DNA of 7,543 nucleotides from a virus (taxonomy: Duplodnaviria > Heunggongvirae > Uroviricota > Caudoviricetes): IMG/VR virus record IMGVR_UViG_2706794685_000002. The stretch is one strand, 5' to 3'. Under the pieces are notes generated by a model that saw only the letters and a list, made by a program, of their open reading frames with translations, made no database searches and was not told where the DNA came from. A program made the translations under genes and the position numbers. This document shows positions 77 to 7,079 of this stretch, one piece after another (within the stretch, counting starts at the first letter, position 1; the number at the start of each line of letters is the position of its first letter).

Positions 77-403
77 TCACTGGCGCTGACACTTCATCAC
101 CTCCGGACGTAAATCACCATCCTTTGGTGCATTCAGAAACGCGTTCAGTGTCCCCGGTGCATCAGTCGGTGCCACATCAATATCCCCGACACGGGTTGGC
201 TGCCAGCCGTTACAGTGAAGCGCAACCTCGTAATACCCCGGCTCAGCCTCAATCACATAAGCACCGTTATTGTCCGTCACGCAAGTGGCAACAACGTGTG
301 CCACAACGGTCGGACTGGTTCTTCTGGCCCGCAGTTCAATCGCACAATTTACGACAGGTTTACCCGCCCCATCTTTCAGTACACCTGAAATCTTTACTGC
401 CAT
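77..403 (-). pseudogene. stf: Side tail fibre (Stf) N-terminal fragment, truncated remnant
   Basis: Minus-strand ORF 77..445; the internal Met at 401-403 begins MAVKISGVLKDG..., which I recognise as the lambda Stf N-terminus, and GTLNAFL / RPEV also match. A GGGGTG Shine-Dalgarno-like sequence precedes this ATG, whereas the track start at 445 has none. The ORF stops after about 109 aa, and the in-frame sequence past the stop (1..76) no longer looks like Stf. Confidence 0.5.
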
Positions 404-414
404 ATTCACCCCAC

Positions 415-439
415 AAAAAGCCCGCCTGAACCAGCGGGC
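415..439 (-). terminator. Putative rho-independent terminator downstream of lom
   Basis: Perfect 6-bp all-GC stem gcccgc (420-425) / gcgggc (434-439) with an 8-nt loop, adjacent to aaaaa at 415-419, which is a T-tract on the minus-strand transcript. It sits 28 nt past the lom stop codon. Confidence 0.5.
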
Positions 440-466
440 AGTCATAACACTGTGTTACCTGGCTAA

Positions 467-1133: not shown

Positions 1134-4100
1134 TCAGCTAATCGTGATGCCTGCAGTGGCTTTCTTCATCACCACAACCAGCAAATCGCTGATACTTGCT
1201 GTGGGATACCAGCCATTTACCAGCCATGCCGATACAGAAAACTCCAGCGTCATGTGACCGTGACCGGCAGGCATATCAATAACACCCGTATATATCAGCG
1301 TATTATCCAGGGTCGTTCGGTTATAAATTTCAGCACCGTTTTTCTTCACTATCAGGCGGCATGACGAATAAATATTGTTATTCTTCCGCTCATGTTTAGC
1401 ACCGCGAAACGCCACCGCGGGAATAACAATTTGCCGATCAAACGGCTGATCGTCATAAACCCTGACGGTAATGGTCCCTGATGGCCACCTCTCCGGTGCC
1501 CGGGAGTCCCGTGGGAAAGGTTTGCCCACTGTTTTAACGAGATCGCCTTCAATCTGGTTCGCGGACAATTTTCCCAGAACCCGACAGTTCTTATTAATCG
1601 TGACGTTGTTGAGCGTCCCGGAGTTCGCGTTCACGTTACCGCTGATATCGGCATTTTTCGCCGTCAGCCGTCCGCCAGGTGTCAGGGAAAATGCCGGAGG
1701 ATTACCGCCGCTGGTAATGGTCGGAGCCGTCAGGCATTTCAGGAACACGTCGTTCATGAATATCTGATCGCCCTGACCAACAAACATCGGCTTTGTGTTG
1801 CCATTCGCAGGATTAATCATCGCAATCCTGTCTGCCGCCAGCAGCACCTGACTCTGCATTCCTGCTGGCGTATTCTCAATACCGGCACCGATACCCGCAA
1901 TATAAAGGCGTCCGTCCTTCATCTGTTGCAGCTTCACAGCCCACATGCTGTTCAGGTTATTATTTGTATCAACCTGAACTTTCTGTATCTGCTGGATTGC
2001 AGCACTCTGATTTTCCAGTTTTTTATTGACGGTTTGCGTGATTTCATTGCTGACATTCGTAATGGACGTCCTGATTTCAGTCAGGTCCGGCGCAAGCTGA
2101 CCGTTATCAATCTGCGTCCACAACTCCTTGCCGAGATGCGTTTTATTGATCAACCCTTTATAAAAATTCAGATAACCTTCTGCATCATCGCTCGCCCGAC
2201 CGATGGCCTCCACAAATGCCGATTTGCCAACGGTGTTCACACTGCGAACGTAAAAATAATAATCATGGCCCGGCCTGATATTGATACTGGCGGCTATCCA
2301 GTACAGCGCCGTGCCAAGATAGCGGGCGCTGGTTTCAACCTGCCTGATATCCGCAATCCGCTTTTCCGAAAACCAGAACTCAAACTGCACCGTCGGGTCA
2401 TATACAGCCAGTTTCGGGACCGCCGTTATCTGAAAATACCCCGGTATCAGTTCAATAGTGACAGGCGCTGCCGGTGCCGCAATCCGGAACGATACCGACG
2501 CCGGATCGCCCTGCTGCCCCCGGGCATTTACCGCCCGGACTGTCAGACTGTAATTCCCCAGCGCCAGCTGCCTGAAGCGGTATGTGGTTTCCGTCGTCCT
2601 GGCTGTGCTGACCAGCCGCTCACTGCCGTCGTCCGCTGCCACGGTCAGGCGAAGCAGGAAGCTCACACCCTTCACCACCTTCGGCGTGTCCCATCGCGCC
2701 AGCACCTGATATTCCCCGCTGTCTGCGGTGACTTCGGCGGTCAGATGCTGCACCGCTGGCGGCGTGACACCATTCACCGTGCCGCGCCGGTCACCGTCAA
2801 AGTGTGCCCCGTTATCCACGATGGCCTCTTTTTCCGGCACATGCTGCACGGCGGTGATGGCATACGTGCCGTCGTCGTTCTCACGGATACTCACGCAGCG
2901 GAACAGACGCTGGCGCAGCGTCGGCAGCTTCAGCCCCCACACGCTGTATTCTGCAACGCCGTCAGGAACCCGGCTCACTTTCACCTTCACGCCGTCGGTG
3001 ACGGACTGGACCTCCACGCTGACCGGATTGCCACTTCCGTCAACCAGGCTTATCAGCGTGGTACCGGAGGACGGCAGCGTGATTTCACGGTCGAGCGTCA
3101 GCGTCCGGGTCTGGCTGTTCACCGCCAGTACGCGACCACCGGTGCTGATACCGGCATAATCATCATCGCAGATTTCAATGACATCACCCGGTACATGGCG
3201 AAGCCCTTCTGCGCCCACGCTGAAGTCCACGGTCTGCGTTTCCAGCAGTTCCGTTTTAATCAGCCACAGCCCGGCTCGGTGTGCCTGCCCCCGGCTGGTA
3301 CAGCCAAAGGCATCCATCTTCGTGACATTACGACCGTAACGGGCAATGGCCTGCGTATCCTCCACAAGCTCTGTCGCCGTCTCCCAGCCGTTATCTGGGT
3401 CAATCCAGTTCACCTCAACGGCATTATGGCGGTCCTTCAGGGCGCTGAAGCTGTAGCGGAACGGCGCGCCATCGTCCGGCATCACCACATTACTGCGGTT
3501 ATAGGTCCACACCTTATCCGACGGTCGGTCCTGCACGAACGTCAGCATCTGTCCGTTCCATACCGGCATACAGCGCATCGCCGAGCAGAAATCACTGAGA
3601 ACATCCCACGCCTTACGCTGTGTGGTCAGGTAAGAGTTACAGGTGATGCGCGGCTCCGTGCCGCCAAATCCGTCCGTCACTGACTGGTCGCAGTACTGGC
3701 CGATGACATACAGCGCCCATTTGTCCACATCTGCCGCACCAAGACGTTTCCCCATGCCGTAGCGCGGATGAGTGAGCATGTCCCACAGACACCAGGCCAT
3801 GTTGTTGCTGTATGCTGGCTTAAGCGTTCCGTCCCAGATACCGCTGTATTGCCGCGTCTGCGGGTTATAGTTCGACGGCACCTGCAGAATGCGCCCGCGA
3901 AGATGATAATTGCGACTCACCTGCTGGTTACCGAACTGCTCTGAATCCACCTGCACGCCGACCAGCGCCGTGTTCGGGTAGCACTGTTTCACATCGATGA
4001 TTTCGGTGTACGACGACCAGAGCGTTTTGTTCTGCAGCTGGTCTGTGGTGCTGTCCGGTGTCATCCTGCGCATCCGGANNNNNNNNNNNNNNNNNNNNNN

Positions 4101-4694
4101 NNNNNNNNNNNNNNNNNNNNNNNNNNNNNNNNNNNNNNNNNNNNNNNNNNNNNNNNNNNNNNNNNNNNNNNNNNNNNNNNNNNNNNNNNNNNNNNNNNNN
4201 NNNNNNNNNNNNNNNNNNNNNNNNNNNNNNNNNNNNNNNNNNNNNNNNNNNNNNNNNNNNNNNNNNNNNNNNNNNNNNNNNNNNNNNNNNNNNNNNNNNN
4301 NNNNNNNNNNNNNNNNNNNNNNNNNNNNNNNNNNNNNNNNNNNNNNNNNNNNNNNNNNNNNNNNNNNNNNNNNNNNNNNNNNNNNNNNNNNNNNNNNNNN
4401 NNNNNNNNNTTTCACTTCCGTACCCAGCACCGTCTCGGAGCCGGAGGATTCAAAACCCTCCGGCGGTGTCTGCTCCTGCTCACCTGCACGGAACACCACC
4501 GTAACACCGGAAAAGTTTGTCTTCCCCTCGCTGTCCAGGACCGGCGTACCGTTCAGCAGCACGCTTTTTAATCCATCCACCGGACCGTCAACCGGCCCTT
4601 CGCTGATGGCATCAATCACACTCAGCAACTGCGTGGATTTCAGGTTGTCCTTCGCTTCGCGCGGGGTATGCCCCTTACTGCTGCCTTTACCCAT
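1134..4694 (-). CDS. J: Host specificity protein J (tail tip / central tail fibre), interrupted by an assembly gap
   Basis: N-terminus [34 protein letters not shown]... matches lambda J. The segment after the gap (…[30 protein letters not shown]…) is J-like and a fibronectin-III-like stretch is visible. A 60-bp I-J spacer matches lambda. The 1186-codon length is read through 111 X codons, so the true length is unknown. Confidence 0.88.
4079..4409. other. Run of 331 N (assembly or scaffold gap) inside J
   Basis: Uninterrupted n characters from 4079 to 4409 in the supplied sequence. Confidence 0.99.
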
Positions 4695-4754: not shown

Positions 4755-5396
4755 TCAGCGACCAATCACCACAACCTGACCACCATCCCCTTCGTCTGCC
4801 GTGCTGATCTCCTGAGAAACCACACGTGACCCCACGCGCATTTCACCGTACAGAACGGGCAGAACATTGCCCTGGGCAACCATGTTATCCAGTGACGAGA
4901 AATACGTGTTCTGCTTACCGTTATCCGTTGTCTGTGTACGGGGAGTTCTGGCTTTCGGTGCCAGCATCTGTGCAACACCGCCAAGCGTCATACTGGCACC
5001 GAGAGAAAACAGCAGATTACTCGCCATAATTCCTACCCCCGGCATCCATATAGCAACCGCCATAACAGCCGCCCCCAGCACCGCCTGAAACACACCGCCA
5101 CTTTTAGCTCCCACCAGACGCGGTACTATGTGGATCACTGCACCATTTGCCAGCGGCTCATTAAGACGGGCAGACAATTCGGTTTCACCTGCATCACGCC
5201 CGGCAATGCGCACCTGATACCAGCCGTCACTCAGTTTCTGACGAAACGCCGGGAGCTGTGTGGCCAGTGCCCGGATGGCTTCAGCCCCCGTTTTCACACG
5301 AAGGTCGATGCGGCGACCAAATCGTTGTAAATCCCCGTAAAGGCAGATGCGCGCCATGCCCGGTGACGCCAGAGGGAGTGTGTGCGTCGCTGCCAT
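4755..5396 (-). CDS. I: Tail tip assembly protein I
   Basis: 213-aa ORF beginning MAATHTLPLASPGMARICLYGDLQRFGRRIDLRVKTGAEAIRALATQLPAFRQKLSDGWYQVRIAGRD..., matching lambda gpI. It overlaps the 3' end of K by 103 nt, as in lambda. Confidence 0.9.
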   Translation of the reverse strand: MAATHTLPLASPGMARICLYGDLQRFGRRIDLRVKTGAEAIRALATQLPAFRQKLSDGWYQVRIAGRDAGETELSARLNEPLANGAVIHIVPRLVGAKSGGVFQAVLGAAVMAVAIWMPGVGIMASNLLFSLGASMTLGGVAQMLAPKARTPRTQTTDNGKQNTYFSSLDNMVAQGNVLPVLYGEMRVGSRVVSQEISTADEGDGGQVVVIGR

Positions 5397-6037
5397 TTGT
5401 CGGTGTACCTCTCTCGTTTGCTCAGTTGTTCAGGAATATGGTGCAGCAGCCCGCCGTCACCGCAGTAAATGGCGGCATGATTCGGCACCGATGAACCAAA
5501 ACAGCACAGCAGCACATCGCCCGGCTGTGCCTCTGTCAGTGCGACACGGTAAAAACCCGTCACCTCCATATTGTCAAGATAGAGATTCTGACCGTTACGC
5601 CACCAGTCATCCCCGCGATGAAAATCCGGCATCTCAATCCCTGCCAGATGATAAGCATCCCGGAACAGCGTGTAACAGTCCGTCACCCCGTGCTCAAAGC
5701 GCCGCCCGGTGAGATGCGGCACACAGCGGAACTTGTGAATCGCCCCCCGGCAGACCAGCCACCACGGCAAATCACTCTGCACCTGCAGCCGCCGGTCAGC
5801 CTCACTCAGCCAGGGCAGACCACCGGGATGACTGTGGACCAGCGCCACAATCTCACCCTGCATTTGTGCCCGCAGCCAGTCCTCCGGAGCCATCCGGAAC
5901 CGTTCCTCCGGCTCACCGGAGATATTCTCGCTGGGAAGATACCTGTCTCCCTCCGGCGTTCTTACCACGAAGCCACACGACTCCGCTGGCGCACATCGCC
6001 GGGCGTGCGCCAGAATCGCTGATTCTGTCTGTGTCAT
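5294..6037 (-). CDS. K: Tail tip assembly protein K, long form with JAB/MPN (JAMM) and NlpC/P60 domains
   Basis: ATG at 6035-6037, 4 nt after the L stop, gives 247 aa starting MTQTESAILAHARRC.... A JAMM motif HSHPGGLPWLSEAD (HxHx7Sx2D) is visible with an upstream ESCGFVV glutamate; a Cys (DCYTLF) and downstream His residues fit NlpC/P60. The classical 199-aa lambda K start corresponds to the internal Met at 5891-5893 (MAPEDWL...), which has a GGAGG upstream. The track ORF up to 6301 is a GTG-initiated extension overlapping L. Confidence 0.85.
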   Translation of the reverse strand: MTQTESAILAHARRCAPAESCGFVVRTPEGDRYLPSENISGEPEERFRMAPEDWLRAQMQGEIVALVHSHPGGLPWLSEADRRLQVQSDLPWWLVCRGAIHKFRCVPHLTGRRFEHGVTDCYTLFRDAYHLAGIEMPDFHRGDDWWRNGQNLYLDNMEVTGFYRVALTEAQPGDVLLCCFGSSVPNHAAIYCGDGGLLHHIPEQLSKRERYTDKWQRRTHSLWRHRAWRASAFTGIYNDLVAASTFV

Positions 6038-6041
6038 GGAT

Positions 6042-6740
6042 TTACTGAGAAAGTTTATTGATGGAAAGGAAACCGCCGAAATTACCGGTATTGTTGCGCA
6101 ACTCACACCCGCGCATACACTTGCTGCATTTGTCCTTCCGGATATCCGTCGTTGGTTTGTCGAACTCGTCAGCCACTGCCCTGCCCGTGTAACCACACTC
6201 ATCAGAACGGTAAGTCCACATACAGGTATTCGCCAGCATGATACGCCCCGGGAAAACCGCGCCATCCGTCTCCGTTGGTGTGGCCAGCACAAAAGAGGCA
6301 CTGACCGCGCTCAGTTCGCTGCACTGCTCGATGCGCCAGCGGCTGATCACCTCCTGTTCCGGATCGGCGTCGCTGTTTCCGTTGACGAAGTTCACCGCAT
6401 CCAGAAAACGGGCGTAAACCTTACGCCTGACCACCGTTCCGCCGACCAGACTCTGCAGGTCTTCCGCCATCCCGGTGACCATTCCGTGCAGGTTAGAAAC
6501 CGTCAGTGTCGGACGGGCAGCACTGCCCTTGCCGTTCAGTTCAAATCCCGTCCCCTGAATGGGGTATGCCTGATACTGCCGCCCCTGCCAGGTAACCGGC
6601 TCACCTTTTTCGTTCTGCTCATTACAGAAAAAATAACGTTCACCACCGACCTCTGTCAGATCGATTTCCCAGAGCACCACCTGGGCTGACTGAGTGAGGC
6701 GTGTCGTCTCATGATGTGTTTCCTGTGGAATATCCTGCAT
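6042..6740 (-). CDS. L: Minor tail protein L
   Basis: 232-aa ORF, the same length as lambda gpL, starting MQDIPQET.... Five cysteines cluster in the C-terminal part, consistent with the Fe-S-binding domain reported for gpL. Synteny M-L-K. Confidence 0.9.
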   Translation of the reverse strand: MQDIPQETHHETTRLTQSAQVVLWEIDLTEVGGERYFFCNEQNEKGEPVTWQGRQYQAYPIQGTGFELNGKGSAARPTLTVSNLHGMVTGMAEDLQSLVGGTVVRRKVYARFLDAVNFVNGNSDADPEQEVISRWRIEQCSELSAVSASFVLATPTETDGAVFPGRIMLANTCMWTYRSDECGYTGRAVADEFDKPTTDIRKDKCSKCMRGCELRNNTGNFGGFLSINKLSQ

Positions 6741-6749
6741 CAGAGCCTC

Positions 6750-7079
6750 CTATGCCACGACCTGTTCAAAATCTGCCGTTATGGTTACCCACAACGCCCC
6801 CACGCTTGCCGACCATTTACGACAAACCACCCTGATCGGCTTCCAGTCATAAGGTGGCGTCCACTGAAATGCGCGGACGCCACCGTGCCGTTCCAGAAAG
6901 GCTTTTAAAAATGGGTGTTCACCTTTACGAACACGTATCTTCACGCTGTAAGTCGACAACTGGTTATTCAGTCCCGCCGCACGACGCTGTTCATAACCAT
7001 CGCCCAGCTTCACTGTCACCACTTTCGGCTCTGATACCACATTCATATCCGGGCGCACTTTCCAGTGAAACGTCTCCAT
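6750..7079 (-). CDS. M: Minor tail protein M
   Basis: 109-aa ORF, the same length as lambda gpM. Its ATG overlaps the H stop codon (TAATG on the minus strand). Synteny H-M-L. Confidence 0.88.
   Translation of the reverse strand: METFHWKVRPDMNVVSEPKVVTVKLGDGYEQRRAAGLNNQLSTYSVKIRVRKGEHPFLKAFLERHGGVRAFQWTPPYDWKPIRVVCRKWSASVGALWVTITADFEQVVA

Follow-up and report, generated by a model that had tools for sequence, protein, structure and literature searches.

Where does translation of the tail gene K begin at this locus, and does its product carry one peptidase domain or two? The window analyzed here, a 7,543-nucleotide stretch of DNA from a virus of the Caudoviricetes (IMG/VR record IMGVR_UViG_2706794685_000002), belongs to a lambdoid prophage and contains the genes M, L, K, I, J and lom, with K placed between L and I and upstream of J; relatives from E. 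coli, Salmonella and Xenorhabdus keep this gene order. All features described below lie on the minus strand. The K reading frame occupies positions 5294–6037, running from an ATG at 6037–6035 to a TGA at 5296–5294, and its 247 codons plus stop encode a protein with a predicted mass of 28.3 kDa. The start annotated in phage λ (14276) corresponds, upon alignment to λ, to an internal methionine codon, Met49 (5891–5893), from which a protein of 199 residues would be made that lacks the 48 N-terminal codons (5894–6037). A sequence-only reading of the window had favored the 247-residue, two-domain form, and Pfam profiles, patterns of selection, homologues and a structural model all bear it out. We conclude that the full product is very probably a 247-residue JAB plus NlpC/P60 protein initiated at ATG 6037, and that the 199-residue K is an annotation artefact. 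The underlying domain and selection signals are far stronger than expected by chance.

The N-terminal part of K matches the Pfam Prok-JAB profile (PF14464), defining a JAB/MPN (JAMM) metalloprotease domain at residues 3–98 (5744–6031). The profile comparison that the sequence-only reading had proposed as its own test separates the two forms: the 247-residue protein scored 52.5 bits (E = 5.5e-14) and covered profile positions 3–103 of 114, whereas the 199-residue form scored 23.2 bits, below the Pfam gathering cut-off of 25 bits, and covered only positions 63–103, about the last third of the domain, favoring the long form. Indeed, the first 48 residues by themselves matched profile positions 3–41 (E = 6.6e-5). 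The JAMM motif has been defined as E-x(n)-H-S/T-H-x7-S-x2-D (PMC300881), and K contains E19, H68-S69-H70, x7, S78, x2 and D81. The zinc-binding portion, H68-S-H70-x7-S78-x2-D81 (HSHPGGLPWLSEAD; 5795–5836), is recognizable from sequence and alignment. The upstream glutamate, Glu19 (GAG, 5981–5983), lies in the segment AESCGFVV, as previously proposed for its pairing with the JAMM motif. In an alignment of 99 sequences, consisting of 98 distant homologues and the K protein of this window, Glu19 is conserved in 97/99, H68 in 99/99, H70 in 98/99, S78 (as S or T) in 99/99 and D81 in 99/99.

Structural comparisons point in the same direction. In a profile search, K matched residues 4–116 of the solved JAB domains 2KKS, 2KCQ and 5LDA, residue 4 of these domains aligning with residue 2 of K and their E-x-C-G glutamate aligning with Glu19. 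An AlphaFold model of K built from the alignment reached a pLDDT of 92.3 and a pTM of 0.88, with residues 1–40 at 88–96. In this model, helix 3–15 and strands 21–27 and 30–36 of the JAB fold all come from the first 48 residues. The best Foldseek match was 5LDA, PfJAMM1 bound to the ubiquitin-like protein SAMP2, together with 5LD9 (target-normalized TM score 0.65), followed on the JAB side by Rpn11 and AMSH. The desampylase family NF041370 (NCBIfam) matched the long form only, and weakly (residues 3–114; 31.4 bits versus a cut-off of 130), so that K is desampylase-like without being a member of that family. Homologue alignment, solved JAB structures and AlphaFold model thus agree in supporting the long form, and the N-terminal domain is predicted to be a JAMM zinc metalloprotease with an MPN fold.

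The C-terminal Cys/His region, noted before as NlpC/P60-like, is confirmed as such by Pfam: residues 111–224 (5366–5707) matched PF00877 over its entire length (positions 1–105 of 105) with 45 bits (cut-off 23; E = 1.2e-11). The alignment identifies Cys121 (5675–5677), His187 (5477–5479) and His199 (5441–5443) as the predicted catalytic residues, each conserved in 98/99 sequences, and Foldseek returned MepS, Spr and Acd33800 on this side of the model. We assign this part of K as a predicted NlpC/P60 (MEROPS C40) cysteine peptidase domain.

Codons 2–48 themselves bear the marks of a translated sequence. Across 67 distinct sequences, dN/dS in this segment was 0.32 when read in the K frame but 2.06 and 1.78 when read in the two alternative frames, and variable sites were distributed 11/8/26 over the three codon positions, a pattern that indicates purifying selection in the K frame only. 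All 98 distant homologues (about 31–59% identity) cover residues 5–48 and share the same start point, none beginning earlier. In the window sequence, the K frame continues upstream without a stop as far as a GTG at 6301 within L, a point overlooked in the sequence-only reading. An extension of K from this codon was rejected because it is not conserved: λ has an in-frame stop eight codons 5' of the ATG, and 0/98 distant homologues extend past Met1.

At its 5' end, K follows L (232 residues; 6042–6740; PF05100, 322.9 bits) with the four-nucleotide spacing noted earlier, the junction reading TAA-ATCC-ATG (6035–6044; L stop at 6044–6042). The K start is not preceded by a Shine-Dalgarno sequence; the best anti-Shine-Dalgarno duplex at this ATG has a calculated energy of +0.7 kcal/mol. 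The L-K spacer measures 4–5 nucleotides in 74 of 75 related loci and 4–9 nucleotides in one E. coli, one Salmonella and one Xenorhabdus relative. Given the missing Shine-Dalgarno sequence, we infer that initiation is probably carried out by ribosomes coming directly from termination at the L stop. Translation of K is thus likely coupled to that of the upstream gene L, and ATG 6037 would yield the 247-residue, two-domain protein in this way. A scan for promoters and terminators around K revealed nothing relevant.

Met49 presents the opposite picture. A GGAGG at 5905–5909, located within Glu-Pro-Glu codons 10–11 nucleotides 5' of the Met49 ATG, can form a duplex of −9.5 kcal/mol with the anti-Shine-Dalgarno sequence. 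The sequence-only reading had pointed out this element and had suggested that both forms might be made. The element is there as described; the suggestion of two forms finds no support, as residue 49 is Ile, Leu or Val in 81/99 sequences, and E. coli relatives have ATT behind the GGAGG. With a strong Shine-Dalgarno-like sequence at the internal ATG and none at the true start, some internal initiation is physically plausible, and, judging from the sequence, it might occur at a low level in λ-like phages. One could go further and envisage two regular products, the 247-residue protein made via coupling to L and a 199-residue protein made from the Met49 GGAGG, comparable to λ S105/S107 or C/Nu3, the latter product comprising the NlpC/P60 domain and a non-functional JAB remnant. 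Besides duplex strength and position, what speaks for this possibility is that 76 of 77 closely related loci have ATG as codon 49. We nevertheless consider it improbable. Residue 49 is I in 63, M in 13, L in 12, V in 6, F in 2 and A in 1 of the 99 aligned sequences, amounting to Ile, Leu, Val, Phe or Ala in 84/98 distant homologues; as most relatives have Ile in place of Met49, a conserved short isoform is unlikely. Close E. coli relatives have ATT behind a retained GGAGG, and the Salmonella and Xenorhabdus relatives have ATA and ATT, respectively, neither with a Shine-Dalgarno sequence. A programmed internal start should show conservation of both codon and ribosome-binding site; what we find is methionine in 13/99 sequences and ATT or ATA in the three relatives whose DNA was inspected. 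Moreover, the GGAGG is accounted for by the Glu-Pro-Glu codons and its distance to the ATG exceeds the optimum, while translation from Met49 would omit helix 1 and strands 1–2 of the modeled JAB domain. As the sequence-only reading had recognized, the internal methionine lies beyond Glu19 and the short form lacks part of the metalloprotease fold; residue 49 itself falls into a low-confidence JAB loop (residues 41–50, pLDDT 63). That the λ-like subgroup with ATG49 and GGAGG makes a 199-residue, NlpC/P60-only protein with a role of its own, such as scaffolding or regulating the full-length enzyme, likewise has little probability. The GGAGG is a Shine-Dalgarno look-alike that lures gene callers to the internal ATG.

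How, then, did the 199-residue form enter the databases? The classical reading, in which this is the sole product and the 48 codons before it go untranslated or form a separate small reading frame, can invoke its annotation in J02459, NC_001416, Swiss-Prot TIPK_LAMBD, DE3, HK630 and λ imm434, as well as 199-residue clusters holding about 11,000 member sequences. We regard it as extremely unlikely: the upstream codons show purifying selection in the K frame only, carry the near-invariant JAMM glutamate, match the JAB profile unaided and have counterparts at the start of all distant homologues, and the 199-residue annotations descend from a reference in which the reading frame is broken. In J02459/NC_001416, one G is absent at 14266/7 (GAGGC[G]TATTTCC), so that the frame opened by ATG 14133 gives MTQTES...GEPEA, and YFRMSPEDW is encoded in a different one. 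The λ form is thus not an alternative start on the same intact reading frame, as had been assumed; K of λ was annotated with 199 residues because the missing G splits the long reading frame, and with the G restored it has 247. In the 1982 reference lacking this G, the first 43 K codons lie in another frame; annotators chose the next in-frame ATG, by chance located 3' of a GGAGG, and this start later spread to sequences with an intact reading frame.

The G is present in 80/80 IMG/VR loci and in DE3, KT232076 and HK630. When a 320-nucleotide λ query was used, LC730321 and PV340536 aligned over 321 nucleotides, LC730321 having an inserted G, and PV340536 annotates K as 744 nucleotides. Of the 4334 E. 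coli complete genomes with a match, none was 100% identical to the λ query, and the best 60 of the 4334 matches all span 321 nucleotides. In ATCC λ, the G was found in 232/235 reads, or 98.7% (PMC3059205, supplementary file 5). Every independent λ or lambdoid sequence examined carries the G.

Could the sequenced cI857 S7 stock nonetheless truly carry the deletion, with K working as a 199-residue fragment, via a +1 frameshift or as a split protein? The N-terminal part of the JAB domain would then be dispensable in the laboratory. The one-base deletion is shared by two other records, OR974322 and the unverified OR474059, which are either independent or reference-guided assemblies, and the reference differs from resequenced λ phages at a mere handful of sites. 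LC730321 was rejected as a same-strain control, as it shows 15 differences from the reference. It has an extra C at 20836 relative to the reference, which we take to restore the side tail fibre gene to its Ur-λ state. Because LC730321 represents another lineage, we used DE3 and λ imm434, laboratory derivatives from the lineage of the reference, as controls; both are identical to the reference over 8–10 kb save for 1–2 substitutions and retain its stf reading, and yet both have the G. In addition, a deletion at 138 and an A>G change at 20661 are common to LC730321 and the ATCC reads, and the change at 20661 is also seen in DE3 and imm434, as one would expect if the reference itself were wrong at these positions. 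One vendor of cI857 Sam7 DNA reportedly gives an inserted G at 14266 compared with J02459. Taken together with the ATCC reads, these observations render a genuine deletion very unlikely.

For this window nothing changes, since K is already annotated at 247 residues; NCBI/UniRef list an identical protein under the name 'C40 family peptidase [Shigella sonnei]'. The 247-residue K is thus already known from NCBI annotation, and its two-domain architecture from work published in 2006 (PMC1779556). Within the literature searched, we found no published statement that λ K has 247 residues or that 14266 is a reference error, and two papers (PMC2966988, PMC3224144) are silent on the K start. The value of the present analysis lies in curation: J02459, NC_001416 and Swiss-Prot TIPK_LAMBD still hold a truncated K, and about one-sixth of public gene calls choose the 199-residue start. 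Some recent curated λ-hybrid records copy this start as well. At least one structural-bioinformatics survey took gpK as 199 residues with a peptidase domain only (PMC7291167), and cloning, modeling or mutating λ K from the reference would leave out the JAB catalytic glutamate.

The neighborhood of K suggests what the protein might act on. The 3' end of K overlaps the 5' end of I, which is read in another frame (5294–5396; I ATG at 5396), and dN/dS for the shared segment is 0.019 when scored for I versus 12 when scored for K (77 clean loci). I encodes a 213-residue tail protein (4755–5396) with an N-terminal ubiquitin-like domain (PF06805, residues 14–97); this assignment, together with the hypothesis that I is processed, has been put forward before (PMC1779556). 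Tail assembly depends on gpK, which the virion does not contain (PMC12617516, PMC10721106), and only residues 135–223 of gpI have been resolved (PMC10721106), although residues 1–134 could be missing from the cryo-EM map just because they are disordered. From family knowledge and this literature, K would be needed for tail-tip assembly, with I as its predicted substrate or partner. The JAB domain would most likely act on the ubiquitin-like N-terminus of I, possibly freeing the C-terminal part of I that ends up in the tail tip.

Among characterized proteins, E. coli MepS/Spr (PDB 2K1G, 8XUP) shares with K the papain-like fold and the Cys-His-His triad. Unlike these peptidoglycan endopeptidases, K has no reported signal peptide or lipobox and works in the cytoplasm during tail assembly, and virions lack gpK (PMC10721106). 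The archaeal JAMM1 desampylases (PfJAMM1, 5LDA; HvJAMM1, NF041370) share the minimal JAB fold and the E...HxH...S..D arrangement and act on a small β-grasp (ubiquitin-like) protein, whereas the substrate of K is only predicted; they provide the best structural match, yet at about 23% identity, and in K the JAB domain is joined to a second peptidase domain. DNA identity to λ-type phages is about 92%, and phrog_30 matches K over residues 1–247 (E = 4.4e-158). With λ gpK (TIPK_LAMBD, NP_040598), K of this window shares the M-L-K-I-J order, the catalytic motifs and the overlap with I; apart from the length, 199 residues in the reference entries owing to the missing G versus 247 here, the two differ by few substitutions, for example RTPEGDRYLPSEN in the window versus STPEGERYFPCVN in λ. 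Finally, the TAPK family of Iyer, Burroughs and Aravind (2006), in which JAB and NlpC/P60 domains are combined beside a ubiquitin-like TAPI in lambdoid and T1-like phages (PMC1779556), has an identical architecture and gene neighborhood, and K of this window is an ordinary member of it, with nothing of substance setting it apart.

On its minus strand the window carries a lambdoid prophage tail-tip module in which the end of H is followed by M, L, K, I, J and lom, with a short stf-like ORF last. K extends from an ATG at 6037-6035 to a TGA at 5296-5294 (247 codons, minus strand) and, as a sequence-only reading had placed it, follows the L stop codon (TAA, 6044-6042) after a 4-base spacer, ATCC. 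That reading took K to be a 247-residue two-domain protein rather than the classical 199-residue form, which would start at an internal ATG (Met49; 5893-5891, minus strand) with a GGAGG ahead of it at 5909-5905. In the K translation, Glu19 lies within AESCGFVV, and the remainder of the JAMM metalloprotease motif reads H68-S-H70-PGGLPWL-S78-EA-D81. Upstream of the ATG at 6037, the K frame stays open within L back to a GTG at 6301. This extension is unconserved; lambda has an in-frame stop 8 codons 5' of the ATG, and none of 98 distant homologues aligned with the window K has residues ahead of Met1.

Elsewhere in the module, M and L (junction at 6741-6765) are separated by a 9-nt spacer, with a strong AGGAGG ahead of L (-10.2 kcal/mol), whereas lambda M and L overlap by one base. 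J, encoding the central tail fibre, contains a run of 331 N at 4079-4409, rendered as X within its 1186-aa translation; masking or a gap in the assembly presumably accounts for it. A 122-aa ORF at 77-445 (minus strand) contains MAVKISGVLKDG, similar to the N-terminal end of lambda Stf, the side tail fibre protein. The ORF stops about 108 residues past the Met of that stretch, which suggests that stf is truncated or disrupted here.

Both peptidase domains of K are complete and retain their catalytic residues, and the place of the gene between L and I is conserved. In Pfam searches, Prok-JAB (PF14464, cut-off 25 bits) matched residues 3-98 (profile positions 3-103 of 114, 52.5 bits), and NLPC_P60 (PF00877, cut-off 23 bits) matched residues 111-224 (45 bits), bearing out the predicted C-terminal NlpC/P60-like region. 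The 199-residue form matched JAB profile positions 63-103 only, at 23.2 bits and thus below the cut-off; a complete JAB domain in the short form had been named beforehand as a refuting result, so this outcome supports the long form. The N-terminal 48 residues by themselves matched JAB profile positions 3-41 (E=6.6e-5), and an archaeal desampylase model matched weakly, far below its cut-off, with the long form only. Moreover, a K-family profile matched solved stand-alone JAB domains (2KKS, 2KCQ and Pyrococcus JAMM1, 5LDA and 5LD9) from their residue 4, with the E-x-C-G glutamate aligned.

An AlphaFold2 model of K, built on a 139-sequence alignment, had a mean pLDDT of 92.3 and a pTM of 0.88. 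Residues 1-40 (pLDDT 88-96) form a helix (3-15) and two strands (21-27 and 30-36), and Met49 falls in the sole low-confidence loop of the JAB domain. The top PDB match in Foldseek was PfJAMM1 complexed with the ubiquitin-like SAMP2, followed by the NlpC/P60 enzymes MepS, Spr and Acd33800, plus Rpn11 and AMSH. On this structural evidence, a protein started at Met49 would miss helix 1, strands 1-2 and the catalytic glutamate of the JAB domain, in line with the proposal that the short form loses part of this fold.

Among 1.84 billion cluster representatives, 2737 relatives of K were found. Full-length relatives at 35-60% identity have 230-260 residues, with their own residues 3-15 aligning to query residues 4-10, and residues 5-48 are present in all 98 relatives aligned with the window K. 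Across the 99 aligned sequences, the proposed JAMM glutamate, Glu19, is E in 97, G22, H68 and D81 are present in 99 each, H70 in 98, and S78 is S or T throughout; in the NlpC/P60 domain, C121, H187 and H199 are each found in 98. By contrast with a conserved initiator, Met49 behaves as a hydrophobic position (I 63, M 13, L 12, V 6, F 2, A 1), and many close E. coli relatives have Ile there. K was also taken from 80 IMG/VR loci (91-100% protein identity to the window K) and related phage records; 77 loci, the window included, have a 744-nt K and yielded 67 distinct coding sequences. For codons 2-48 of these, dN/dS was 0.32 in the K frame versus 2.06 and 1.78 in the other two frames, with 11, 8 and 26 variable sites at codon positions 1, 2 and 3.

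At the other end of the gene, the last 33 K codons (215-247; 5297-5395) gave a dN/dS of about 12 when read as K; constraint there acts on the overlapping I frame, which explains the high value. Over the 102-nt K/I overlap (5294-5396), the I frame has a dN/dS of 0.019, and 73 of 77 loci encode the same 34 residues in it. Lambda_tail_I (Pfam) covers residues 14-97 only in the long I, which starts at ATG 5396 (I, 4755-5396). The long I is the real form, a mirror image of the K start problem, and the C-terminal helix that the model gives K (residues 230-244) can vary freely. A GTG over the K stop (5297 here) serves as the I start in several recent records (PV340571, PV340536, KT232076).

The 199-residue annotation originates in the 1982 lambda reference (J02459/NC_001416), where a missing G splits the K ORF. 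RefSeq places lambda K at 14276-14875 and leaves 148 bases after L unannotated. These encode MTQTESAILAHARRCAPAESCGFVVSTPEGERYFPCVNISGEPEA from an ATG at 14133; beyond this the frame is broken, and YFRMSPEDW follows in a different one. The reference reads GGAGGCTATTTCC at the break (GAGGC[G]TATTTCC with the G restored, 14266/7; about 5900 in the window), while 13 sequences with lambda-identical flanks read GGAGGCGTATTTCC. One further base is present here in all 80 IMG/VR loci and in phages 21 and PhiR55_1; DE3, KT232076 and HK630 carry the extra G. HK629, O276, LC730321, PV340536 and the lambda imm21, imm434 and h434 hybrids gave 321-nt alignments to a 320-nt lambda query; in LC730321 the G is inserted, and in PV340536 K is annotated as 744 nt. 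Among complete E. coli genomes, 4334 of 5426 matched the query, none of the 4334 at 100% identity, and 60 of the 60 matches listed span 321 nt, not 320. A commercial supplier of lambda cI857 Sam7 DNA reportedly lists the same G insertion at 14266. In ATCC lambda reads, the change from '-' to G at 14267 occurs in 232 of 235, and was given no gene because the reference calls the site intergenic (PMC3059205, supplementary file 5).

Exact matches to the reference are limited to J02459, NC_001416, OR474059 (marked UNVERIFIED) and OR974322, described as a 'lambda isolate' from chicken cloacal swabs. The last two may not be independent isolates but assemblies guided by the reference, or laboratory lambda DNA; the G is present in each independent lambda or lambdoid sequence that was examined. 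The tail genes of lambda imm434 (10 kb) and DE3 (8.2 kb) equal the reference except for this G and 1-2 substitutions, and both agree with the reference at an stf site that carries an additional C in LC730321. A deleted G at 138 (LC730321, ATCC reads), A>G at 20661 (LC730321, DE3, imm434, ATCC reads) and A>G at 22444 (LC730321, imm434) are probably also errors in the 1982 sequence or changes private to it. With the G restored, lambda K has 247 residues, a protein found exactly on at least 1000 contigs under the name 'C40 family peptidase' or 'PAD1/JAB1 superfamily protease'; AAA96551 and Swiss-Prot TIPK_LAMBD give the 199-residue sequence.

The short form persists in annotation. DE3, HK630 and lambda imm434 have an intact ORF yet are annotated with 199 residues, and the imm434 record places a ribosome-binding-site feature on the GGAGG; summed cluster members number about 11,000 in 199-residue clusters versus about 51,000 in 247-residue clusters. 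The ATG at 6037 has no Shine-Dalgarno complementarity (+0.7 kcal/mol), and its position 4 nt past the L stop is what coupling by termination and reinitiation would lead one to expect. The internal ATG does have the noted GGAGG, 10-11 nt upstream (-9.5 kcal/mol), a signal that attracts gene callers to the short start. The suggestion that both forms might be made fared less well: the GGAGG belongs to Glu-Pro-Glu codons, an E. coli relative keeps it with ATT at codon 49, and Salmonella and Xenorhabdus relatives lack it and have ATA and ATT there, all three with the K ATG 4-9 nt past the L stop. A conserved second product thus seems unlikely; lambda-like phages may occasionally initiate at Met49.

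K is needed for tail assembly and undetected in virions (PMC10721106, PMC12617516). At the N-terminus of I is a ubiquitin-like beta-grasp domain that terminates in a conserved glycine, where Iyer et al. predicted that the K JAB domain cleaves (PMC1779556). Only residues 135-223 of virion gpI are resolved (PMC10721106), which fits removal of this domain but is not proof of it. We suggest that K could be a cytoplasmic assembly protease or chaperone acting on I during tail-tip formation, and possibly on other tip proteins.

A 2020 survey treated gpK as 199 residues with a peptidase domain at 52-182 only (PMC7291167), and in the literature searched no published statement was apparent that a missing base truncates the reference lambda K. 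The truncated reference is a curation point, not a discovery. The 247-residue protein is confirmed and its interpretation supported, save for the suggestion of two forms, but both were already known: the JAMM motif in lambda K was noted in 2003 (PMC300881), the two-domain architecture was published in 2006 (PMC1779556), and the identical protein with both Pfam domains is already in NCBI and UniRef. Within the lambda K (TAPK) family, the window K is unremarkable.
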